Assembly (NCBI GenBank): GCA_963575745.1 | Contig: CAUYUJ010000033.1 | Coordinates: 62,001 to 119,381, forward strand | Length of the DNA stretch: 57,381 bases | From: Prorocentrum cordatum | Lineage: Eukaryota | Direction: 5' to 3' | In this document: positions 40,572 to 57,290 of the stretch, one piece after another | Layout of the letters: the number at the start of each line of letters is the position of its first letter | Numbering within the stretch: position 1 is the first letter of the stretch | Translations under genes and position numbers: made by a program | Notes under the pieces: generated by a model | The model's input: the letters and a program-made list of their open reading frames with translations, nothing else | Told to the model about the DNA's origin: nothing | Database searches by the model: none

Positions 40572-42710
40572 AATTAGCCTGACGAGGGACCCAACCATAT
40601 GCAGGTGCGAGTACCGCAATAGTGATTCATTTTTTCGGTGGCGATCCCTATGAGGCAACGAACCGTGCTAGGGGCGTGCCGACATGAGTGGCGTGGTACA
40701 CAAAGTGAACGAAAACGATTGATCTGAGTACGTAGGGAGACTGAGCGCGGGTGAATCTGCGCGCGTGCGTCTGACTGTGAATGATCTGCGTGCGAGCGAG
40801 TCTACGTGCATGAATGCGAATATGACAAAGCGTGGTGCAAATGTGTATGAATGCCAATAGTTTGACAACGACTGCCTCTGAATACTCGTGACGCTGGGCG
40901 TGGCCGCCGCAAGGAGCTTCCCCGGGACTCCCCGACGGCATCGCCCGCGCGCCGCGACGCCAATGTCGGCGCGCCCCCCCGCGAGGATCGCGCCCGCTTC
41001 CTCCCCTTCCTTTACTCCCTCTTTGCCCGCGCACTCAAAAGTCCAAGGCTGCGGGAGCAGCGCAGCGCGGAGCCCCCGCGACGCGCGCAGGTCACCCCGG
41101 AGGGGTCCCAGCGACGCGCGCGGGTCGTCCACTGCGCGGAGCGAAGAGAGCTAGCTGGCTGGCTGATAGCGGGCAAGGCTCTTGCCGCTGGGCAGAGCGA
41201 CGACGGGCGAGCGAGGCGCTGGGCGGAACGCAGCACGGAGCCCCCGCGACGCGCGCAGGTCGCCCCGGAGGAGTCCCAGCGACGCGCGCGGGTCGCCCGC
41301 TGCGCGGAGCAAAGAGAGCTAGCTGGCTGGCTGGGACCTGCGGTGGGGCTCCATATGGGGCCACGTAACGCTGTACTGGGCAAAGGAGACGCATGTGGAC
41401 TGCGCCACGGGGACCTTCGGTGGAGCTCCCTATGGGGCCACGAAACGTGTGAGGGATGTGCCGGAATGGGTGTGCGGGACGCATGCGGGCACACCCACTG
41501 AGACCTTCGGTGGAGCTCCCTATGGGGCCACGAAACGTGTGAGGGGTGGGACGACATGTGTGTGCGGGACGCATGCGGGCACACCCACTGGGACCTTCGG
41601 TGGAGCCCCCTATGGGGCCACGAAACGTGTGAGGGTGTGCCGAAATGGGTGTGCGGGACGCATGCGGGCACACCCACTGGGACCTTCGGTGGAGCTCCCT
41701 ATGGGGCCACGAAACGTGTGAGGGGTGTGCCGAAATGGGTGTGCGGGACGCATGCGGGCACACCCACTGGGACCTTCGGTGGAGCTCCCTATGGGGCCAC
41801 GAAACGTGTGAGGGGTGTGCCGAAATGGGTGTGCGGGACGCATGCGGGCACACCCACTGAGACCTTCGGTGGAGCTCCCTATGGGGCCACGAAACGTGTG
41901 AGGGGTGTGCCGAAATGGGTGTGCGGGACGCATGCGGGCACACCCACTGGGACCTTCGGTGGAGTTCCCTATGGGGCCACGAAGCGTGTGAGGGGTGTGC
42001 CGAAATGTGTGTGCGGGACGCATGCGGGCACACCACTGGGACCTTCGGTGGAGCTCCCTATGGGGCCACGAAACGTGTGAGGGGTGTGCCGAAATGGGTG
42101 TGCGGGACGCATGCGGGCACACCCACTGGGACCTTCGGTGGAGCTCCCTATGGGGCCACGAAACGTGTGAGGGGTGTGCCGAAATGGGTGTGCGGGACGC
42201 ATGCGGGCACACCCACTGGGACCTTCGGTGGAGCTCCCTATGGGGCCACGAAACGTGTGAGGGGTGTGCCGAAATGGGTGTGCGGGACGCATGCGGGCAC
42301 ACCCACTGGGACCTTCGGTGGAGCTCCCTATGGGGCCACGAAACGTATGAGGGGTGTGCCGAATGGGTGTGCGGGACGCATGCGGGCACACCCACTGGGA
42401 CCTTCGGTGGAGCTCCCTATGGGGCCACGAAACGTGTGAGGGGTGTGCCGAAATGAGTGTGCGGGACGCATGCGGGCACACGCACTGGGACCTTCGGTGG
42501 AGCTCCCTATGGGGTCACGAAACGTGTGAGGGGTGTGCCGACATGGGTGGTGATAATGATGATGACGACAGATGATGATGACGATGACGATGATGGGGAT
42601 GATGACGATGATGATGAAGATGGGAGGAGGGAGGGGGCAGCGGGAAGGAAGGAACGCGGGGCGACGTCTCTTCAAAACGAGGACCCAACACCACAGGATG
42701 GTTGGGAAAA
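40572..42710 (-). mobile_element. Element E: intact D-family non-autonomous element carrying a homogeneous 90-bp satellite
   Basis: Left end aattagcctgacgagggacccaacca; right end ttcaaaacgaggacccaacaccacaggatggttgggaa; IR cccaacca (40590-40597) / tggttggg (42699-42706); terminal hairpin; (GTA)n on both sides. Confidence 0.75.
41350..42545 (+). repeat. Tandem satellite, 90-bp unit, ~13 near-identical copies
   Basis: gaccttcggtggag anchors at 41412, 41502, 41592, 41681 ... 42489. Confidence 0.97.
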
Positions 42711-42721
42711 AAACTAATATT

Positions 42722-42822
42722 CCTAGTCATTGTAGCAGCAATAGTAATAGTAATAGTCGCAGTCGTAGCCGTAGTAATAGTACTACGACCAGTAGTAGTG
42801 GTAGTAGTAGTAGAGGTAGGCC

Positions 42823-42859
<37 letters not shown>

Positions 42860-42869
42860 CGTCGTAGTC

Positions 42870-42923
<54 letters not shown>

Positions 42924-42925
42924 CC

Positions 42926-42977
<52 letters not shown>

Positions 42978-43086
42978 ATAGTCGTAGTAGTAGTAGACGA
43001 AATAGTACTAATAATGATAGTGGTTGTAGTGGTAGTCTTAGTAGTAGTGCTAGTAGTAGCAGTAGTAGTAGTAGTAGTAGTAGTAG

Positions 43087-43117
<31 letters not shown>

Positions 43118-43337
43118 GAGTAGTAGTAATAGTAATCGTAGTAGTCGAAGTCGTAGTAGTAGTAGTCGTAGTAGTAGTAGTAGTTGTAGTAGTAGTAGTA
43201 GTAGTAGTAATAGTAGTAGTAGTAGTAGTAGTGGTAGTAGTAGTAGTATTGGTAGGCAGCGGAGTAGTAATAGTAGTGATAGTACTAGTAGTAGTAGTAG
43301 CAGTAGTAGTAGTAGTAACAATAAAAGTAGTAGGAGC

Positions 43338-43371
<34 letters not shown>

Positions 43372-43409
43372 CGTAGTAGTAGTAGTCGTAGTCGTAGCGT
43401 AGGTATAGT

Positions 43410-43446
<37 letters not shown>

Positions 43447-43449
43447 CTA

Positions 43450-43505
<56 letters not shown>

Positions 43506-43527
43506 TAGTAGTAGTAGTAGTAGTCGT

Positions 43528-43565
<38 letters not shown>

Positions 43566-43857
43566 CTAGTAGTAGTATTAGTAGTAGTCGAAGTAGTAGT
43601 AGTCGTCGTAGTAGTAGTAGTAGTAGTAGTAGTAGTTAGTAGGAGTAGTAGTAGTAGCAGTAGTAGTAGTACAACAGTAGTAGTAGTAGTAGCAGTAGTA
43701 GTAAGTAGCAGCAGTAGTAGTAGTAGTAGTATAGTAAGTAGTAGTATAGTAGTAGTAGTAGCGGTAGTCGAATTATTATTATTGTTAGTAGTAGTAGTAA
43801 GCAGTAGTAGTAGTATTAGTAGCAAGTAGTAGTAGTAGTAGTAAGTAGTAGTATTAT

Positions 43858-43892
<35 letters not shown>

Positions 43893-43922
43893 ATAGTAGT
43901 AGTAGTAGTAGTAGTAGTAGTC

Positions 43923-43976
<54 letters not shown>

Positions 43977-43978
43977 AT
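42722..43978 (+). repeat. Degenerate (GTA)n field
   Basis: Direct inspection. Confidence 0.97.
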
Positions 43979-46028
43979 TGATGTGGAAGGCGTAGTAGCA
44001 GGAAGTGGAGAACAGGTCGCGGAACGGAAGCGTAAGGGAGGAGTGAAAGGGGGGGGAACGGAGAAGGGGAAGGAAAGAGATAATGGCACATAAGGTAACA
44101 GGACAAGAGAAGGAGGAGGGAGGAAGGGGGGCAGGAGGAGGGGGGTGAGGAAAGAGGAGGAGGAGGGATGGAGGGACCGAGGGGGAGGAGGAGGAGGAGG
44201 AGGAGAAGGAGGAGGAGGAGAGGAGGAGGAGGGGGAGGAGGGAGGAGAGGAGGGGAGGAGGAGGAGGGAGGAGGAGGTGGACGAGGGAAGGTGAGGAGGG
44301 AAGAGGGACAGGAAGAGAATACCCTCCTCGGGCGCGCTCGGCGGCCTCGCCCCCTCGCCCCCCGCAGCCGCGCCTGCGCTGACGGCGCCCGGGCTCCACA
44401 GGCGCAGGACGCGAGGACGCAGTTCGAACCTACAGATTCTCGGGTTGGCGCCCCGCGCCTGGGCGTCGGCGGGGGGCGTTCGAGCCAGTGCGTGCGATCT
44501 CGTCGCGGGAGGAGGGGTAGTCAGGACAGCACGATGGTGGGCTTGTTTTCCACCACCACCACCATTAGTAGGAGGGGCAGGGGGTTCTTCTCCTCCTCCT
44601 CCTCCTCCTCCTCCTCCTCCTCTTCTTTCTCCTCCTCATCCTCCACCTGCTCCCCCCGTCCAACGTATGGTGGTGGTGGTGGAAAAAAAAACCCATCAGC
44701 ACAACACAGCGCAACCAATCCCAACCCCGCCAGGACCCCCACTCCCCTGGTGATCCAGAGGGGGTCTGGCTTGGGGTGGGAGTAGCTTCCTGGCCCCCAG
44801 GCCACCCCAAACACGCCCCCGCCCCCGGCCAGGCACCCCGTGGATCGCCAGGCCGAGGGTGGGGCCCTAGAGGGCGTGGGGGTGGGTTGAGCTGCCCTCA
44901 AGTCGGAGGAGGATGAGGACAGAACAGTGTCTAGTCGGCGCGAGCCGTCAGCCCCACCGAAGAGGGCCAACTTCAGCCTGGCTGCCGCCTCCGGCGGGCG
45001 CCGCCGTGGTCCGTCCTGCAGGAGGGCGCCTACCAGTCGGCCTTGGGGTCGATGGGCGTGACCTGGGCGGCGACTGCGACTGCGGCTGCTCTCTTCCTGC
45101 CCGCCTGCCTCGCTCGCTCCCTCCTTCCCCGCTCCTCCCCCTCCTCTACCTCCTCCTCCTCCTCCCTTCTCATCCTCCTTCCCTCCTCCTCCCTTTTCCT
45201 CCTCGTCCTCCTCCCTCCCTCCTCCTCCCTCCTCCTCCCTTTTCCTCCTCGTCCTCCTCCCTCTTCCCTCCCCATCGTCCTCCCTCCTCCTCCCTCCTCC
45301 TGCTCCTCCCTTCTCCTCCTCGTCCTCCTCTCTCCTCTCTCATCCCTCCTCCCCCGCGTCCTCCTCCTCCTCCTCCTCCTCCTCCTCCTAAGAGAACAAC
45401 ATGAGAAACAAACATAGGAGCATACAGAACAGGAGCAGGAGGAGGAAGCGGCAATATCACTGGCACTCCACGCAGGCCGTTGTTTCCAGCTCCTTCGTTA
45501 CTTATTATCATATCCGCCTCCTCCCCCTCTTCTTACCATCATCATCATCATCCCGATCCGTCTCCCCCTCAATTGAGTTTTCTCATCCTACTTCTCCACT
45601 TCGTTTCCCTTTCCCTCCCCCATCGTCCTCCCACCCGTCTCTCTCTCAATCCCCTTCCTTCCACACCCTCCTTTTACTCACCTTTGCCCTGTTCGTTCTC
45701 CACCATGCTGACACTCGTCGTCAACTTATGCATCGACCTCCACCTGCCCTGCGTCCACACCTGCCTATCGCCTATCTGGCCGCCCCCTCACCTCCTCCTC
45801 GGCCCCTTACTCGGCCTCGGCTCCCGCCTCCACCGCCTCCCCCCCCGTCGTCGTTGTCGTCGTCCTCCTCATCCTCCGCGTCCGCCTCATCCCTGTCCTC
45901 CGCCAGCGCCGCCGCATCCTTCTCATCCTCGCACTCGTCTTCCTACATACGCAGGCGGGCACAACATGCCCAGAAGCCTCCTCGCTCACCCGTGCTGTTC
46001 CCCGCAAGCGCGCGAGGGAGGGAAGAGT

Positions 46029-46074
46029 CACACGCACACGCAAACGCACACGCAAACGCACACGCACACGCACA

Positions 46075-46105
<31 letters not shown>

Positions 46106-46521
46106 GCGCACACACGCACACACGCACACACGCACACACGCACACACACGCACACACCCACACACCCACACACCCACCCACCCACACACCCACCCACCCA
46201 CACACCCACACACCCACACACCCACGCACGCACGCACGCACGCACGCACACACACGCACACACACACACACACACACACACGCGCACACACACGCACACA
46301 CACACACGCACACACACGCACACACACACACACCAACACGCACACGCACACGCAAATGCACACGCACACGCACACGCACACGCACGCACGCACGCAAACA
46401 CACACACACACCCACACACATGCACACACAGACACACAGACACACAGACACACAGACACAGCCACAGCCGCACACGCACACACGCGCGCGTGTACACACA
46501 CAAGCGCACCCACGCACCCAC

Positions 46522-46553
<32 letters not shown>

Positions 46554-46632
46554 GCGCACACACACACGCAAACACACACACACACACATACACACACACA
46601 CACACGCGCACACACACACACACACACACGCG
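46029..46632 (+). repeat. (CA)n/(CACG)n alternating purine-pyrimidine tract
   Basis: Direct inspection. Confidence 0.97.
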
Positions 46633-48020
46633 TTGCGCTTGCTCTTCCACTCGCCCATGCTGCTGCTTCTCCTGCTCCTGCTGTTCCTCCCGTTCCTGCT
46701 GCTGCTCCTCATCCGTCTCCTCATCCGCCTCCCCCTCTCCTTCTATCCTCCCCTTCCTTCTCCTTGTCCTTCTCCTCCTCATCCTCCTCCTCCTTCCCAA
46801 TTGTCCTCCTGCGCCTTTTCCCCCCGCCCCTCCCCTGACGTCCTGGGGCCAAGGCCTGTGTCTGAGATCTCCCGGGAGGGGGTGGGGAGGACCAGGACCG
46901 AGGACCGCGAGGATTGAGGAGGATACACACGGCATGCAGTTGGCTTAAAGTTACCAAGAGAAAGAACATTTGGAGATGCGGCGGTCATCGGCGAAGAACG
47001 GGAGACTGTGGGGCAGTGTGCGGAAATCCGTGCTGCCAGAAGCCAGTAGTTGACCGACAACGGGCCACCCCACATCCTTCAAATGAGTGGAATGGCCGGG
47101 ATCAAGCGCCAGTGGCCGTGGTGGGGCTAGTGCGTGGGGGCGATGCCGCGATGCCCGTGGTCTTGGTGGAGCGAGTCCACGGAGAATCCGCTTCTCCGGC
47201 CGCCCCAACATGAGATCTCGGGCACGGGCTTGACACTCACCAGCAGACTTCGACTCGGGCGGGAACTCCTGGAGCCGTGGCTCTGGAACTCCTGGCCTCT
47301 GAAGGCCTCCGCCGCTCCTGCTGGGTCGACCGATCACTCCTGCTTTGCGTCGCACGCGGCGCGACAAACTGTACACTTTCCGACCTTGAGCAGGGACCGA
47401 TCGTCCCGACATTCCTATAGACCAACCACGACATGTTCTTAGAACCCAAACATATTCTAACAACTAAAACAATGTTCTTAGAACGTGAGCCCGATGTGTT
47501 AAAACAAAAAGGTCCCAGCAAGAAATGTTCTAAGAACGTATCGTGGCAACCACACAATGTGATTAGAACATTGTTTGGTAGGCCAAGCACGCCAGGATGC
47601 TTCACCACTGCTTGAAGACCTCTCGCGGCCTCCGGGGGCAGGGTCGCACTCAAGCACTGGCTTCGTGCCGCGGCGCGCGAGCGTCGGGTGGGAGCGTGCC
47701 CTGCACGGGCCCGCCGAATGGAGGAGGAGGAGGACAAGGAGGAGGAGGGAGGGAGGAGGAGGAGAAGTAGGAGGAGGAGGCGGAGGACCAGTGTTAAACC
47801 AAGAGTCATCAACGATGTTGGAACTAACCCTCCCTCCAAGCTCCCTCTTCATAGGCCCCCACAACGGTTCATTTCTATTGAGGAAACTGCCTCGTTGGAA
47901 GACAACCGTTTGAAGATCCTGAAGCATACCAAAACATGGTTCTCGGGATTCCAGCGTCACGAATCAACCTGACTGCTGCGTCTTGACGATCCGGAATCGT
48001 ACCAGAGCGCCATTTTTTTT

Positions 48021-48750
48021 GACTTCCACACCGCGAATCAACATAACTGTGTCACCAGCAAAACCCTGAATCCTTCCAAAGCACCATTTCTGGTACGCTG
48101 ATCATCGGAATCCGTGCAACTCTTGCTCAGTTTTAAAATGAATGTGCGCGGCGCTAAGGCGAAAGCCACAGTTTCAAAACGATCGGCCTTCAATTCGTGA
48201 AATGCTTGCAAATCTTAATAACGTATGTGCGCGGTGCTGAAGCGAGAGCCACATTTTGAATAGGAGCCGCCCTCACTCCGTGAAACTCTTGCAATTTGTT
48301 AGAACGAATGTGCGCGGCGCTAAACCGAAAACCACAGTTTGAAAACGACCCGCCTTCAACCCGTGAAATGCTTGCAAAATTTTAAAAGCGAATGCGCGCG
48401 GCGCTAAAGCGAGAGCCACATTTTGAAAAGGAGCCGCCCTCAAACCGTGAAGCTCTTGCAATTGTTTCAAACGAATGTGCGCGGCGCTAGGGCGAGAACC
48501 ACATTTTGAAAACGACCCGCCTTCAATCCGTGAAACTCTTGCGGCGCTAAGCCGAGAGTCACATATTGAATACCACCCGCCCTCAATCCGTGAAACTCCT
48601 TCATTTGTTTGACGAATGCGCGCGGCGCTAAGGCGAGAGCCACATTTTGAAAACCACCTGCCCTTCATCTGTGAAACTGTTGCCACTTCTTAAGCTTCAG
48701 AATCATAAATGGTGAGGAAGTCTCAGGCCAAACGCCCGGCCAGCTTAAAA
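48021..48750 (+). mobile_element. Element I: asymmetric-IR element with ~83-bp tandem repeat (48140-48680)
   Basis: After a T8 run, gacttccacacc (48021-48032) / ggtgaggaagtc (48711-48722) 11/12 IR, then a ggcc-aaacgccc-ggcc hairpin and an A run; repeat anchors near 48141, 48226, 48307, 48391, 48474. Confidence 0.65.
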
Positions 48751-48799
48751 AACTGGCCATGGGGTGCGACAGGGAGGAGTTATCCATAAGGAGAAGGAA

Positions 48800-49715
48800 T
48801 GGAGGAGGAGGGAGGGAGGAGGAGGAGGAGGGACGGAGGAGGGAGGGAGGAGGAGGAGGAGGAGGAGGAGGAGGACGAGGGAGGAAGGAGGGAGGAGGAG
48901 GAGGGAGGCAGGGAGGGGGGAGGGAGGGGAGGAGGAGGAGGAGGAGGAGGAGGAGGAGGAGGAAAGGAGGAGGAGGAGGAGGAGGGAGGGAGGAGGGAGG
49001 GAGCAGGAAGGGGGTGCGGCGTGCGAGCGTCGGATGGGAGCGTGCCCTCCGCCCGTGGCCCTCGCGCTTCCTGTCTTCGCACGGGCCTGCCCAAGGGAGG
49101 AGGAGGATGGCGATGACGATGGCGATGACGACAACGATGACGATGACGATGATGCTGATGATGACGATGTTGATGATGATGCTGGTCATGATGATCATGC
49201 TGATGACGATGTGGTTGATGATTCGCAGTAGAATGATGCTCATTTAGATGGTGATGATGCCGATGACGACGGTGATGATGACGATGATGATGATGTTGAT
49301 GAGGATGATGATTGTGGTGGTAACGATGATGATGCTGATGATGCTGATGCTGATGATGATGCTTGTGCTGATGATGGGGCTGATGATGAGGATTGCCCGT
49401 ATCATGATGATGATGATGATCATGATGATGACAATGATACTGGTGATGATGATGATGACGATGACGATGGTGGTGGTGGTGGTGGAGATGAGGAGGATGA
49501 GGAGGAGGGAGGATAATGAGGGAAGGAGGAAAGGATGAGGAAGACCAACTCCCGTACCATGATCTGTTTTTGAGAAGCGCCAGCGCCTTGATAATGAAAA
49601 GGGGGAGAAAGAGGAGGAAGAGGAGGAGGAGGAGGAGAAGTAGGAGGAGGAGGAGGAGGAAGAGGAGGAGGAGGAGAAGTAGGAGGAGGAAGAGGAGGCG
49701 GAGAAGGAGGGGATT
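48800..49715 (+). repeat. (GGA)n and (GAT)n low-complexity block
   Basis: Direct inspection. Confidence 0.9.
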
Positions 49716-51369
49716 TTTGGATTGCCTTCTCGTTGAGGCAACTGGCCTGTCGAGTTACGGTGGCGCTGCGGCTAGCGATGCAACTGAAAGAGCGGGATCG
49801 CACGGGCACCTAAGGATTGCAGTATACAGTACCAGTACACCAAACCCACTTCTCCTTACTATCCCACCCACCAATCCGACCCATATCAGACGAGACATGC
49901 CGCGGTCTGAGACACGCGGAATCGAATCATCAGCTGACAGCCGCGGGGCTCAACCCGCGCGGCAGGGCGGTGGGCGCGCAGGCCCGCTCGGGCAGCGACT
50001 GAAAAACGTGGTCTGCGCTAGGACGAGCGGGGCGGCAGGCTGCACAAAGGAGGGCGGTCCTGCAGGCTTTGTGTCGCTGGATCCCTGCCCAAGAGAGGAC
50101 CCTTTCCCAATCTCTAACTGACTGGCAGCAGCGACGACACCATCGCAGCAGGGTGCACTCTCGTCCGATCCACGAATACACAATGCAATGAGCTGCCAAA
50201 GTGGCGCTGTCGTGGGCGCGAGAGAGCACGCACGTCGACGTGAACAATCCCGCCCAGCTTCCCTTCTGAAGTCCCCCAGCCCTTCAATCCCGCAAGCCGC
50301 CCCTTCAAAGAGAGGCAGGCAGCGTGCAAGCAAGAGGGGGGGCGGGCATGCAGGCGAGAGATGCTGGATGCGAGAGAGCGGCGGCAAGTGAGAGAGGCTC
50401 GCTGGCATGCTGGCGAGCCAGCCACCGTGCCTCGCGGGCGGGGGGGGGCGATGCGGCGCTGCCCCCCACCGGCCAGCCTTGGAGAGGCCGCACCAGCAGG
50501 GGGGGGGCGCACTCGGTCAACAGGGGGAGGACTGCAGTCGCCCCGCACACAAGCGTGCGGGGGCCCATGCCCCGCAGGCCCTGGCCGCTTGCTTGCCGGG
50601 GCCACCTGGGCCTGACCCACGCCCGGGCACGTCGGAACGAAACTGACTGATCAATCAGCGCGGCGATCGGAAGGTGGGGAGGGTACAAATGAAGCGCGGG
50701 GCGGCAAAGGGAGGGGCGGCTGGCGGCGAGAGAGCAAGAGAGCGAAAAAGGCAGGTCGCTCCCTCGCTCGTGATCCCTCCAGATCCTCCACCCAACCTGA
50801 TCCTGATCCTCCACCCAACCTTCTACTAGCCAAAGATGCCGCTGCCGAAATTCGGCTGCAACGCCCAAGGAGCTATGCGTGCGGCAAGGCGCGCCTTGCG
50901 TCTATCTCTGGCCTCGGCGCGTTTGCGTTGAATCATGTCACGCTGTGCGTCCGCGAGCTGGACTGGAGTGGGCACAGGAGGGGGGGCAGAGGCAGGGGCG
51001 ACGTGTGACGCAGACGCTGAGTCTTCTAGAAAGGCAAGGGCGTCTGCGTATTCCTGCTCTTCGTCCGCCTCGGCAGGCCCTGTCTGCCGAGGAGTGGCAC
51101 TGGGGTCGTACACGAGGGACGGCTCGGGCAAATCGGCAACTGGCCTTTCACCTGGGAGCTCGGGGGGCAAGAACCTAGAGCTTTCAGGATCGGCGCGGAG
51201 GCGTCGCCTCGTGGCTCCTACGAAATCGGGGGCCCACTCCTCGTTCGTGCCTAGATACGAGTCCCATGCAACATAAAAAGCCTCTGGTGCCCCACGGGGT
51301 GCCCATTCCTCCTCCTCCAGGTCCTCAGGCCATGCCTGAGGGTCGCTCGTCACACGCATATGATTGACC

Positions 51370-52120
51370 GCATCCACGATACCGTGAGCCAAGACCTGAC
51401 AAAGCGCGGGGGGTATGTCTTCTTTTTGGCCGTCCGCCATTCATCCTTCTGACCGTCGAAACCCAAGAGCACTTCGTGGGCGTTCCGACCGTGTGAGCAG
51501 CGTCCGCGGCCAGGCGTTTCCAAAAGGCGATCATGCAGTGTACGCGTCCTCAAGGCCAGAATTCGTGTAGGCGCGCGAGCGCACCGACCGTGTTCGCACT
51601 GATCGAAATCGGTTGTAGAGGCCGCTGGGGACGACATGATCGCACGCAAAGGTGGGCACAATAATGAACTCACAGCCTCTTGTCGCCACGACGCTGGTAC
51701 TGGGTGCTCCATCCAACAACAAGTGCCGACGGCAAGGTGAACGGCGAAGAGTTCTATCATGGCTCCTAGGAGCTCGTTGCCAACACGTACCTGCTCCATC
51801 TGACGCGGTGCAATGGCAAGCATGCCCCAGAAGTCATCGTGGGACCGCAGTGGTGGGGGCCCCATGTCCCGAGCCCATCGGATGGCGGACCAGGTCTCGC
51901 AGGGAGGCCCACCTCCAGAGAGGACCACCCTGCGCGCACGTATGTGTTCCTTCCAAACCTCCAAGGTCTGGGGCCGCATCATATTCCCAAGGACGGGGTC
52001 GATAGCAATGTCTATGGACAGGACCGTGACCGTAACATCAACGTCGTAGTGTGTCTACTCTAAACATGCCTGAATATCCTCTGGGCGTCGACGCCCACAA
52101 AACAAGTTGAGGACATAATA
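51370..52120 (-). pseudogene. C5 cytosine DNA methyltransferase-like domain of the LINE polyprotein
   Basis: Motif I VLNLFCG (~52094-52114), II VLSIDI, III GNM, IV GGPPCETWS (catalytic PC ~51899), VI WMEHP, VIII-like RAPTRIL, X-like YPPALC. In-frame TAG at 52055-57; 1-nt deletion in G6 at 51408-51413. Confidence 0.85.
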
Positions 52121-52712: not shown

Positions 52713-53439
52713 GTATGCATGGCATGTGCGGTAGGGGGTGGGGGATCCACGATGAGCCCGCGCTCGTTAGTGTAGATACGGTCGGGGACTCCTACGGGCT
52801 TCACAACGGCAAAGAACTGGCGTTCGACATGCTGCGCCAACGTCACACGTGCTGCATACTGTGCGTGTGCATGTAACCCAGCCTGAATAAGGCGCTTCCA
52901 TGCTGGCTGACTGCAACGAATACGAGACTCCCGTGCGGCAAAGTCGTCGGCTGGGCGGGGGAACTCACCCAGGGCGGGGAGCGCCTGTTGTAGCCAACCG
53001 AGATCCTCATACCAAAGTCCCAGGATTGTCCGATTTTGGGTGTTCGTATCGGCGGCGGCGTGCCACTCGGCCGCGACAAGCCCGAACGCGACCGAAGGAC
53101 CTGTGTGGACCAGGGACCCAAGTAGCCGAAGTCTGGCGGCCCGTAGGATCATGACTGGAGAGGGTCGACGCAAACGTGCCAGTACCAACTGATCAGAGAC
53201 CTGCGAAATGTCCTCGCGATAGCTGGCACGGGCGGCTGCACGATACACCTTCATGACCTCAACGTGTATGAGATGGGCTTCGGCACGAGTGAGGGCGGGC
53301 CAAGCCCCAAGACTAAGGCGCTCTCTCACATCCAAGTCATCGGTGGCAAACACCCGTCGTCGTAGCACTTGCAGGGAGGCGACCGATGACGACGACCGAT
53401 AACGGATTTCTGGAGTCATGACACCTCCCGCATCGAACA

Positions 53440-54650
53440 CCGAGCCCAGATGGATATAGTTGTGTACAATGGGCGCCTGAATCCGTCCCAGAAATTCCGA
53501 GACGCCAACCATGTATCCTCCATATTCATGCCACGCGGCATGCCTAGCCTTTTTAAGTCCGGGTCCGCGCCACGAAATCAAAGCCGCCGTTTTGGACGGT
53601 CCCAGGTTGAGTTTGTGTCCTCGGGTGGCGAACGCCTCGGACACACATACAAGAACTCGGCTGAGTCCATCATCCAGCTGACTCGCAGGCATGATTAGGA
53701 TGACGATTCCAGCATCGGCATACGAAATATCGAGTAATGGTAGAGTGGGTTGGGGTCGTTCAGTCGGGTCAGTAGGCAGTAATGCTGCCGGCGACCTGCC
53801 TGTCGGTGGTGGGAGAAGGTGGGCATATCCTTGATCGGTAAGCTGGGTGCGGACATCCTTCATGCAGTCGGCCATTTGGAGTTCAAATAGAACATCAGCT
53901 AGGGGCTGCCCAGGAAAGAAGGATCTCTGTGGGAACGAGACTTGATCGGACCCTTCGCAGACAAACCAGGGGGCCTGGTAGCATTGGCCGACTTGGGCTA
54001 CCACATGTCGGTCGACATCCGAGTTGTTGAGGGCCGCGGGCTGCTCACTGAGTCTCTGGGCAAGCTGAGGCATCACAGAGGGCGGTAGTCCGGCGGCTCG
54101 CACCAACGTCGCAACTGTATCGTCATCGAGCTCGGTCTCGTGGCAGGCACGTGTAACGAGCTCGCGAATGGCCCGATAAAACGCTTGTACCACGTCCAGA
54201 AACAGGGCTCCCAAACTCATGTTCTGCCGTTGGGCTAGAGCCTGTGCAGTACGTAGTATGAGGGATGCGTGGGCGGTGCCGCGGCCTGGGAGGCCCCCGA
54301 ACTGGGTTTCGCCTGCCTCCTGGGCCAGAAAGGGAAGTAGCTGTTTCCGTATACACCTCCGAGACGCCTTTCCTATCTGGGACGAGACGAGAATAGAAGC
54401 ATTGTGTCGGGTCCGCTTGACCAGACTTGATGAGATCCCTGTAAAATCCACCCTTCCACTGTATAGGCTCCACTAGTGTAAGGGAGAACTTGAGTTGGAG
54501 TGGGTAGTAGTATGTAGCGACGGCAGCAGGGCACGCTCGCACACGGCCTCCTGGGATCCCGTCACAACCTGGGGCCGAACGACGAGCCTGTCGGCAAGAC
54601 CACTGAAAGTCGGAAAGAGTCGGGATTGTGGCAAGCGAGACTGGCGTATC
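53440..54650 (-). pseudogene. Non-LTR reverse transcriptase domain (inactive)
   Basis: SAPGCDGIP, EPIQWKGG, QFGGLPGRGT, LFLDVVQAF, PGQPLADVLF, YADA (for YADD; 53711-53722), LNLGPSKT, YIHLGS; frameshift near 54395. Confidence 0.92.
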
Positions 54651-55699
54651 GATCGGCATGCCGTCATACGGTGCACGTCCGAAATGCCCTGCTATGTGGG
54701 GGATATCAGCCATAGTGAAGGTGGCCCCGAGCTCGAGGCTGGCAAAGTGTTGTTGCCAACGCTGGGCAACTGCTCGCTCCGACACAAGAGGCTGTCCCGT
54801 GATGTCGCGTAGGGCCGGGAGGACACGATCGATCTTGCGCCTTTTGGACCCTGCCCCAATACGTCGCAAAGCCGAATAAGCCTCGGCAAACTGCCGTCGG
54901 TCCCAGGCGCTTTTGACTCCCTTGGCAATGGCCGCGCAATGCCAGGCATAATCGAGTCCCGTGGATTGTTGAATTACGTACGTGGCGGCACGCAAAAATA
55001 TGTAGCTGGTGGCCCAGTAAAACCCCATCCACCCCTGGCAAAGCTCCAGTATGGTTCCCAGTTGAAAACAGTGTCCAGACGGTGGGAATACTAGTTCGGC
55101 GGCGGTAGGTAGGCGGGCTAAGTATCTGAGGCCCACTAAATGGTCCTGGTTGAAGGGTGGGTAGGTGTACTTGGTTGTTGGACTGCGAAGTGGCAGGGTA
55201 AACGGGGCAGCGCAGTCCATGACTGTGTCAGTAGCCTTCGCGATGGTGCGGAATGCACACAGTAGTGGGTAGTGGGACGGGCTCTCGCGCCATGAATGGC
55301 GCCAAGTCAAAGTACGATGGCAGAACCAAGTGCCACTCTCAGCACCGTCGGTGGCCCAAGCGGTGAACACGAACGTGAGCAGTAGGCGGGACAGTTGTGA
55401 CCGCAGGGCCCGTAGGGCCGCACGTCCTTGAGTTCTAAGGTCCATGAGGTCCAGGGGTCCCTTGGATATCCAACCGTGTTTGGCCTGTCAGCCACTCTCC
55501 GAAGTACTGGGCGGGAAGGCAACCTGGGCTGCGTGCAAGATGTGCTGGTTCAAGTGATCAGCATGGTCGTCCGGGTGGGTTTGGTAGGTGGGCTGAGGCA
55601 CTGACTCAAGCTCACGAACGAATGCGGCACAACACTCTGGATCATTGTACTTCGCTTCGTCCACTCGTAATCGGGGCCACGTGTGTGCATGCTGGTATG

Positions 55700-56560
55700 G
55701 CAGAGATGGGTACACGCACACATCTGCCGACACCACAAAATGATTATCACTACGCAGAGAGAGATCAATATCCACTTCCACTGACTGTCGTGCAACGCAC
55801 GACAGCTGTCCGCATGGCACAGTGATGTAATCAATGCGATGCCGTGGGTCAGTCCCTTGAGCCCCAGGGGGAAGCCAGGTACCATGGACCCCAGAAGCCG
55901 AAGGCAACATCGTGGATTGGGCAATCTGTCCCGAGGTTTGCAGAAACTGATGAAAACGAGCCCCAGTGCGGCTCTCGTTTTCGGCGGCAACGTCGCCAAC
56001 GTGATCCGAGACCCGAGAACCCAGAGTAGCATTCGCATCCAACAAACAGCACAGAGGCGCGGGATGCGAGCGCTGGCGCAGGATGCGTTCGATACCGACC
56101 CACCACTCTTCAACCTCGACGCTGTCACGCCTGGAGTGCGGAGCATGCCCGACCAAGATATCGACACACAAATGTGGTGCACGCACAGCAACGAGAAGAT
56201 GATGATAAGCAAAGCTGAGAACACGAACATGGCGGCGAGAGAGCGTACACCCGCGCACGTACTGAATACCTGTGTGCACCCACAGAGCTACCCCACCTGC
56301 ACCCTTCTGTTCAGCAGCGGCGGTGAGCACAATATACTGAGCGGCAGGCGTCCATCCGTTGCGTCGCATCCTAGTCTCGAGCGTGCCGATAAAGAGAAAC
56401 TGACGAGCAGCAAACAAGTGCGCCAGAAACAGCATGCGCCCAGGGGTATCGAGTCCAGCAGCGTCCTGGTACCGACATCGTATCCGCATCCTGCCTCCCT
56501 TCCGCGCAGCCTTCCTCCTCGGCCGTAGTGTAAGAACATTGGCCACAGCAAACCTGACAA
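55700..56560 (-). pseudogene. APE-type (EEP fold) endonuclease domain
   Basis: VANVLTL, GTLETR, GGVALWV, GHAPH, LDANA, RIDYI, SDNHFVV. Confidence 0.9.
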
Positions 56561-56834
56561 AGGCATCAATACCTGAACGGGTAGGCGAACGGACCGCGTC
56601 TTCACTTTCCGAGCTGAGTCCTGCATGCGGCGAGAAAGCGCGACGCGGATCGAGGAGAGGCGGACGGATGATGGGCACGTCGCTCATGCCAACTTTCGGA
56701 TACACCCCGTGACCGTCGCTGGCGTTGGAGATAACTGACATCCACAGCCAGGGCGCAGCAGCAGCGGCGGCGGCGCCTAGCGCAGACCACGGTTGAAAGT
56801 CGTCGGGCGCAGTCGGAGCCAAGCCCATGTAGGC

Positions 56835-57290
56835 TAATCGTGACATGGCATCTGCAAGCTCATTCCGAGGGTCGGCAGTGTCCCAGGACGTGTTTCCAAC
56901 GCACCGTGGTAAAACAGCGGAGGAGCTTCAGCGCCCCATCGAACATCCCAGAATAGTCCCCACAAGGTGAGTAGTGCGTTCCTCCTTCGGCCGACCTGAT
57001 TACCAGGATGTTGTCGGTGAAAACTTCCAGAGGCCTGGGCCTGAATCTGCTAGGAGCCTGCAACAGCCACAGCACTAGCCATAGGGCAGCTTGAAATTCA
57101 GCAGAACCTGGAGCACTTGGCAGATCGAGGAGAGAGGGGTCAACACCACATAGATAACCTTCACATGTATACTGTTGTGTGCCAGTCACTGAGTACATAC
57201 ACCAAGCCAATGACGGTGGTCCACCCAGTACTTGCGCCCGAGATCCACCAGATCCGTCCGTATGCACCTCGTACCTGATAACCTCCTCCT
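56835..57290 (-). pseudogene. RNase H domain N-terminal to the endonuclease
   Basis: VHTDGS, SAEFQA, VFTDN, WKHVLGH, then after a frameshift at ~56873 DPRNELADAMSR in frame with the APE ORF. Confidence 0.85.

Follow-up and report, generated by a model that had tools for sequence, protein, structure and literature searches.

A decayed LINE in Prorocentrum cordatum belongs to a large family of retrotransposon proteins ending in a C5-methyltransferase-like domain

Introduction

Can a long interspersed nuclear element (LINE) carry a cytosine methyltransferase at the end of the very protein that reverse-transcribes it? The question is raised by a locus on the minus strand of a 57,381-nucleotide stretch of Prorocentrum cordatum DNA (assembly GCA_963575745.1, contig CAUYUJ010000033.1, positions 62,001 to 119,381 of the forward strand), hereafter the window, in whose own numbering all positions below are given. 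A first-pass annotation of this DNA, made from its letters alone, had read there a LINE whose reverse transcriptase (RT) and zinc fingers are followed by a C5 DNA methyltransferase (DNMT) domain. Our analysis finds that the window locus is a dead copy, and that its interest lies in the family that it reveals: LINE proteins that end in a divergent module which we think, on balance, is a C5-methyltransferase, predicted to methylate cytosine at C5 in intact elements.

Results

A domain with two lesions in the window copy and none in its relatives

According to the listing of open reading frames (ORFs) and their translations, the minus-strand frame from 54472 down to 51350 is open but for a single TAG at 52055-52057. 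Reading through this codon and restoring one base in a run of six G (51408-51413) gives a continuous sequence of ~270 amino acids from 52120 to 51351. Translated from 52300 to 51350 with the TAG as X, the strand reads ...YYVLNLFCGRRRPEDIQACLE-X-THYDVDVTVTVLSIDIA...GGGPPCETWS...WMEHPVP...DFDQCEHG..RAPTRILAL...WRTAKKKTYPP, and because PPALCQVLAHGIVDAVNHMRV (51413-51351) continues the domain in the next frame, a frameshift lies in or adjoins the G6 run. The parts of the domain are as follows, the motifs being taken from the translated window.

51351..52120, minus strand: C5-cytosine-methyltransferase-like domain, ~270 amino acids, from alignments, models and fold searches
52120-52076, minus strand: motif I-like FCGRRR, YYVLNLFCGRRRPED
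52055..52057, minus strand: in-frame TAG within the domain; Trp or Leu in relatives, TGG in other copies
52024-52004, minus strand: S.D motif, VLSIDIA
51916-51887, minus strand: GPPCE motif, GGGPPCETWS
51715-51695, minus strand: EHP motif, WMEHPVP
51610-51551, minus strand: DQC..G..RAPT motif, with its DFDQCEHG part at 51610-51587
51439-51351, minus strand: K.YPP..L..LA motif, with its WRTAKKKTYPP part at 51439-51407
51408..51413, minus strand: G6 run (C6 on the coding strand), one base short; the frame shifts directly before the last helix of the domain

Intact relatives run uninterrupted through both lesions, with Trp or Leu at the position of the TAG and ...KKKTYPPALCQVLADGIADA... across the frameshift. 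The read-through peptide matches such relatives at E 5e-114 with 61% identity and at E 1.4e-154 with 80% identity, so the domain is no chance product of the way in which it was read. In a public DNA run (X1), the contigs over this part of the window, which represent a mixture of many copies, have C for T at 52056, which turns TAG into TGG (depth 42.2 of 42.2, two contigs), and an extra G behind 51407 (depth 65.6 of 103, five contigs); in other copies, then, the frame of the domain is open. Relatives and contigs alike thus bear out the first-pass view that one stop codon and one homopolymer frameshift interrupt an otherwise continuous domain. Its placement behind the RT and a zinc finger also holds, as a C2H2 finger (52717-52646) and the RT lie upstream in the same reading frame.

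Predicted structures are nearest to C5 methyltransferases

Two models of the domain were available for comparison with known folds. The first, of a 453-amino-acid relative with 13 sequences, has a predicted local distance difference test score (pLDDT) of 65.8 overall and of ~70-95 in the domain core, while the second, of 272 amino acids of the relative P0012 (77% identical to the window peptide) with a 55-sequence alignment, has a pLDDT of 93.4 and a predicted template modelling score of 0.90. When the PDB was searched by Foldseek with either model, every listed row was a chain of the C5-methyltransferase family, including DNMT3A/B, DNMT1, MET1, DNMT2, DIM2, ZMET2 and a prophage methylase, with E values from ~1e-4 and probabilities mostly of 0.93-1.0. 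VIA-align, which is independent of Foldseek, placed C5-family chains at ranks 1-16 among 48,161 chains for each of the two models. Among the viral predicted structures of BFVD, the best match was an unnamed protein of 210 amino acids (A0A0A0RJX0; E 2e-7, template modelling score (TM) 0.70 on the target), followed by a putative cytosine DNA methyltransferase of Tetraselmis virus 1 (A0A2P0VN45; 218 amino acids, E 2.8e-6, TM 0.61 on the target), and most named rows in the top 25 were cytosine methylases. In the predicted models the domain thus has a class I methyltransferase fold nearest to known C5 enzymes, with a modest margin over generic Rossmann folds. Since C5 methylases come out on top with both aligners, both models and both libraries, a C5-methyltransferase-derived fold is favoured, and on these models we consider it quite likely.

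Conserved residues occupy the expected structural places. In an alignment of 167 members, conservation reaches 90% or more in H, G.RR..D, S.D, W, GPPC, R, P..R, G, G..L, EHP, S.W, Q, G, KPT, G, T and K.YP. In the model, [FY]-x-G-R-R-R comes after strand 1 and S.D stands at the end of strand 2; GPPC follows strand 74-79 (strand 4), which would make it the Pro-Cys of motif IV; and EHP, which is invariant, ends strand 143-149 (strand 5), providing the Glu of motif VI with His-Pro in place of the Asn-Val of ENV. Further on, DQC..G....(K/R)(A/P)T joins strands 176-182 and 193-199, a link whose shortness in the model suggests a hairpin, and K.YPP.L..LA begins the last helix. In C5 methylases these structural places are those of motifs I, II, IV, VI, VIII and X. 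At the first of them, [FY]-x-G is kept and is followed by an invariant Arg-Arg (G.RR.GD).

Within the same domain, the Cys of DQC covaries with a further Cys and two His (GRC.H....H; window 51461-51610, minus strand). This C-x-C-H-H pattern is found in at least 68 sequences of a subfamily that includes the window copy, and a QG subfamily is without all four residues, a covariation that is suggestive of a small zinc site in this part of the domain.

The domain is the regular C-terminal module of a large LINE lineage

A search with the read-through peptide returned nine proteins of similar length and 11 longer ones, all 20 of which align over the domain. Among them are fragments from Pyramimonas sp. 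CCMP1952, the 80% identical P0012, whose 90% cluster holds the full-length P0292 and P0297 together with a Pyramimonas transcript fragment, and the Symbiodiniaceae gene model Skav229822, which carries RVT_1. A family profile (A2) made from 13 trimmed domains was searched against 1.84 billion representatives and found 10,344 proteins (clusters) at E<=0.001, 5,035 at E<=1e-10 and 1,388 at E<=1e-30; one of its best matches, P0023, is the Fugacium kawagutii gene model Skav221730. The domain match ends no more than 15 residues from the C-terminus of the protein in 129 of the 159 near-complete matches among stored relatives, so that the domain regularly closes the proteins of a large LINE lineage. 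The family comprises at least 10,344 clusters and is wide in LINEs of Pyramimonas-type green algae and of Symbiodiniaceae. This count does not sit with the first-pass description of the class as rare, while the absence from other copies of the LINE that it had named as a refutation is not seen, the domain being present in relatives and in the contigs of run X1.

Pattern scans for a GGPPCE-type peptide gave little outside eukaryotes: IMG/VR yielded no relative to this peptide pattern, the only one scanned for, and 185,579 prokaryote genomes yielded one locus (L083). This lies on a 3.5-kb contig in a metagenome bin labelled as an actinobacterium and has RT and domain in one frame; because the same combination of RT and domain is present, it is probably misbinned eukaryotic LINE DNA. 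In the ESM Atlas (query P0003, residues 95-400), the 30 nearest clusters are without a Pfam family, and the closest one to bear a family name, PF00145 at 0.87, is no more than a lead. The nearest cluster of all bears the automatic and probably wrong name "Alpha-galactosidase family protein" and the label Haptophyta, so the family may occur in haptophytes as well.

The host element is a LINE in decay

Stop-to-stop ORFs and tblastn of full-length relatives place the coding region of the element on the minus strand from ~57279 down to 50829, with the 5' end of the element lying beyond the window. P0292, a full-length relative of 2,282 amino acids, aligns by tblastn in four segments.

57279-56878, frame -1: P0292 residues 111-245, 61% identity
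56879-54381, frame -2: P0292 residues 246-1073, identity within 61-67%
54466-51407, frame -3: P0292 residues 1057-2082, identity within 61-67%
51467-50832, frame -2: P0292 residues 2063-2277, 50% identity

Intact relatives encode one protein of ~2,200-2,300 amino acids, in the order RNase H, apurinic/apyrimidinic endonuclease (APE), RT, C2H2 finger, ~270-amino-acid domain and tail, and the window copy is collinear with them.

56878..57279, minus strand: RNase H-like N-terminal region, EVHTDGSGG at 57270-57244; P0292 tblastn, 61% identity, frame -1
55488..56927, minus strand: APE endonuclease region; Pfam Exo_endo_phos E 3.6e-5, 24.1 bits against a cut-off of 24.5
54381..54466, minus strand: frameshift zone from frame -2 to -3, an indel relative to intact relatives (...ADPTQC / SILVSSQIGK...), from the alignment
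52800..54400, minus strand: reverse-transcriptase region, 67% identity to P0292 and P0012
52646..52717, minus strand: C2H2 zinc finger, HTCPWCSTQYSRHRAMRTHIARAH; weak Pfam zf-C2H2 and Zn_SUZ12 matches
50829..51350, minus strand: C-terminal tail of the ORF, from alignment with P0006, P0009, P0010 and P0012

An APE endonuclease upstream of the RT within one ORF marks the element as a non-long-terminal-repeat retrotransposon, and with its RNase H-like, APE, RT and C2H2 parts all found, the first-pass identification as a LINE stands. The relatives give the clearer domain matches: Exo_endo_phos is above its cut-off in P0020 and P0333, RVT_1 clears its own in P0014, P0016, P0024 and P0302 and narrowly misses it in several others, and zf-C2H2_4 is matched at the position of the window finger. 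Pfam RNase_H is matched by P0292 and P0297 at E 6e-4, below the cut-off. The RNase H-like region precedes the APE region, an order shared by P0292, P0315, P0327 and P0333; in LINEs, RNase H usually comes after the RT, and this RNase H-first order looks unusual. The tail carries the motifs FYV.WD.YLG..E.WAPDF (51278-51222) and a terminal IAPW...FG.GIFG (50876-50829) before the stop codon of the ORF, a TAG at 50826-50828. Green-algal relatives keep FYV.WDPYLG.DE.WAPDF, a basic stretch and, at the extreme end, APW...EFG.GLF, and the tail of dinoflagellate relatives terminates in QPDYHG.

The window copy is a pseudogene and does nothing. The four segments of the P0292 alignment, which fall in frames -1, -2, -3 and -2, reveal three frameshifts, and to these are added two in-frame stops, the TAG at 52055-57 and a TGA at 55488-90. 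The latter (55488-55490) ends the APE ORF, yet the same frame resumes after it and the P0292 alignment spans it. In addition, the RT active-site motif is YADA (53722-53702, minus strand) and not YADD as in the intact relative P0012, which is a further sign of a dead copy.

Downstream of the element, two run X1 contigs match the window for ~20 nucleotides past the stop codon and then diverge (window 50800-50828), and a GGTTGGGTGGAGGATC unit occurs twice, which hints at a very short 3' untranslated region or a repeat tail. The neighbouring DNA from 42000 to 49000 is rich in repeats, with a 90-bp unit present six times (42000-42549), ~410 copies of (TAG)n (42742-43976), CACACGCACACA-type repeats (46029-46631), an 83-bp unit present five times (48109-48542) and GGA/CTC runs. 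Ten other long stop-to-stop ORFs, scanned in window positions 1-42000, matched no Pfam family.

Discussion

Several results weigh against an active C5-methyltransferase and have to be set beside the structural evidence. The search with PF00145, which the first-pass annotation had itself proposed as a check, failed: the window peptide has no match even at E<=10, none of 18 long relatives matches at E<=0.01, and eight of 42 short relatives match only at 10.7-13.4 bits, below the curated cut-off of 22 bits that no sequence exceeded. All eight of these sub-threshold matches fall on profile positions 42-88, which we take to be the stretch around the Pro-Cys motif. NCBIfam and PHROGs gave nothing significant for 12 proteins (TIGR00675 reached 10.5 bits in one of the 12), and among PDB sequences neither phmmer with the peptide nor a profile of 13 sequences found a chain at E<=10. 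By hhalign, the family (167 rows) compared with 14 Dcm orthologues at a probability of 2.5%, and with 36 Dcm-like sequences (E. coli Dcm and 35 translated IMG/VR loci picked from 80) at 1.7%, only the GD...G.PC stretch being aligned. The real score of 23.7 was lower than that of reversed columns (27.2) and was reached by one of 60 column shuffles, an approximate null; because these controls beat or reach the real score, no sequence-level homology is claimed. No sequence method, then, links the domain to known methylases at significance. The motifs themselves depart from the canon: an invariant Arg-Arg stands where the canonical SAM (S-adenosylmethionine) loop has glycines, Q...G....KPT stands in place of the Q-x-R-x-R of motif VIII, motif IX is not recognisable in the family alignment or model, and the target-recognition domain is minimal, with only ~40 residues between the hairpin and the last helix. 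The ratio of observed to expected CpG stands at 0.90 for the element and 1.01 for the domain, compared with 0.83 for the window, so that the element is not depleted and there is no sign of heavy CpG methylation of the window copy. A caution also attaches to the data on selection: the contigs compared with the window mix many copies, and of 110 base differences the list covers the 40 with the best support. Within this list, 18 of 23 listed differences in the domain are synonymous, against an expected fraction of 0.24-0.28 under transition weights of 1-4 (binomial p ~1e-6), and the five replacements include the TAG to TGG change (Trp, as in relatives) and an Arg to Gln change to the residue of close relatives (HGQS); the tail looks neutral, with five of 15 listed differences synonymous (p 0.45). 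The result itself speaks for the domain, which by this comparison of sequences is under purifying selection in the lineage of the element.

Of the explanations that would do without a methyltransferase altogether, the one in which the domain is an unrelated alpha/beta, Rossmann-like fold and its DNMT-like motifs are coincidental draws on the same failed sequence searches, and we regard it as improbable. C5 methyltransferases would hardly then have filled the top 16 of 48,161 places for two independently built models, all listed Foldseek rows from the PDB and most named rows of the BFVD top 25; the family-specific Pro-Cys and Glu sit after the expected strands, and the eight sub-threshold PF00145 matches share one short stretch of the profile. 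Nor does the decay of the window copy dissolve on closer view. That both lesions in the domain are assembly errors in an active element might be entertained, in that one of them sits in a homopolymer and that part of the depth in run X1 has the extra G, yet 37 of that depth of 103 matches the G6 of the window, the copy also has an in-frame TGA, two frameshifts outside homopolymers and YADA for YADD in its RT, and each aligned segment is only 50-67% identical to the nearest intact protein. As those two frameshifts are ordinary indels, assembly error cannot explain the decay, and the chance of an active element at this locus is very slight.

A closer competitor accepts the DNMT fold and gives it another role, whether with another cofactor or substrate (C5 methylation of RNA as by Dnmt2, a carboxymethyl-type donor, or the covalent trapping of a flipped base at integration) or as a non-catalytic binder of nucleic acids like DNMT3L. 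With its Arg-Arg loop and without a proper recognition domain, the module could use another cofactor, act on RNA or have a non-catalytic role. Pseudoenzymes usually lose their catalytic residues, whereas here 167 divergent sequences keep Pro-Cys and Glu at 90% or more. The two features by which known enzymes bind the adenosine part of SAM, an acidic residue following strand 2 and the aromatic-x-Gly in motif I, are both retained, and the best structural matches are DNA enzymes (DNMT3A/B and M.HhaI). We therefore rate this other role as unlikely, though less so than an unrelated fold.

The first-pass claim of a C5-DNMT domain survives in its motifs and in a predicted fold nearest to C5 methyltransferases, and falls short where a significant PF00145 match is concerned. 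If the domain is a divergent C5-methyltransferase, as we somewhat prefer, it would in intact elements accompany the RT in the integration complex and transfer a methyl group, presumably from SAM as donor, to C5 of cytosine in new cDNA, in target DNA or in the RNA of the element. The conserved Cys and Glu would perform the transfer. The domain retains aromatic-x-Gly where the cofactor loop opens behind strand 1, an acidic residue behind strand 2, the nucleophilic Pro-Cys behind strand 4 and the Glu that follows strand 5, as well as a hairpin with Q...G....KPT and the closing helix K.YPP.L..LA. The window copy, being a pseudogene, cannot methylate its own new copies. A more far-reaching reading, which we hold to be rather less likely than not, is that the whole forms a C5-methyltransferase-derived clade that escapes Pfam, comprises at least 10,000 clusters and is C-terminal in one LINE lineage of prasinophytes and dinoflagellates, where it would be an active enzyme marking the new DNA or RNA of the element, with an Arg-Arg loop and a near-absent target-recognition domain that would point to an unlike cofactor or specificity.

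The consequences differ with the outcome. Known DNMT-carrying retrotransposons, in a few lineages, came from searches with the Pfam DNMT profile (PMC5890265), and the window domain escapes that profile. If the domain is active, surveys based on PF00145 have missed or undercounted retrotransposon-borne DNA modification in marine algae, and its role in the unusual methylomes of green algae and coral-symbiont dinoflagellates would have to be assessed; the odd cofactor loop could indicate a new specificity. If it is inactive, a retroelement has kept a DNMT-derived module for another purpose.

Among known systems, the nearest in kind is SymbioLINE-Dnmt. Using PF00145 to search proteomes, de Mendoza et al. 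2018 (PMC5890265) described a LINE whose DNMT occupies ORF1, with the RT encoded in a second ORF downstream; they noted that none of the LINEs known before had a DNMT in ORF1, and their yeast assay of the SymbioLINE DNMT was inconclusive. Both systems are LINEs with APE and RT carrying a domain of cytosine-methyltransferase type, and the family described here likewise occurs in Symbiodiniaceae gene models (Skav229822 and Skav221730), whose identifiers are absent from three supplements of PMC5890265. The two differ in other respects. The window domain closes the RT protein, following a C2H2 finger, whereas the SymbioLINE domain belongs to ORF1; the SymbioLINE DNMT is detectable by PF00145 and the window domain is not; SymbioLINE-Dnmts are CpG-depleted, unlike the window element at 0.90; and the nearest relatives of the window element come from the green alga Pyramimonas. 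The first-pass assignment to the same class as the Symbiodinium LINE-DNMTs, with their ORF1 domain as reported in PMC5890265, is accordingly not upheld for a C-terminal, PF00145-negative domain.

Enzymes of the PF00145 family (DNMT3A/B, M.HhaI, DNMT1, Dnmt2 and DNMT5) share 7-14% identity with the window family and no significant profile match, and have G.GG in the loop versus GRRR.GD here, ENV versus EHP, and Q.R.R versus Q..G....KPT. The closest predicted structures are small putative cytosine methyltransferases of algal giant viruses (A0A2P0VN45 and A0A0A0RJX0), which, like the window domain, are compact and without a large target-recognition domain; compared by predicted structure, they are stand-alone proteins with 12-16% identity.

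Other transposable elements carry DNMTs as well, and a 2026 preprint (bioRxiv 10.64898/2026.05.21.726589) lists SymbioDIRS-DNMT3, SymbioLINE-DNMT, Gypsy-DNMT3 and new EpiLTRs of Cymbomonas and Euglena, among which no LINE has the domain behind its RT. SymbioDIRS-Dnmt3, the Klebsormidium Gypsy-Dnmt3 and the EpiLTRs resemble the window family in having a methyltransferase appended to the polymerase protein of a retroelement, in one case in a relative of Pyramimonas. They are long-terminal-repeat or DIRS elements, and their domains are of canonical type, DNMT3/DNMT4-like or Dam-like, whereas the window element is a LINE with a non-canonical one. Searches of open-access text, which leave Repbase reports and bioRxiv supplements aside, turned up no description of a LINE whose RT protein ends in a methyltransferase-like domain. 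A DNMT-type domain borne by a retrotransposon is thus already known; what is new here is its position in the protein, the LINE lineage that hosts it and a sequence that lies outside the Pfam family.

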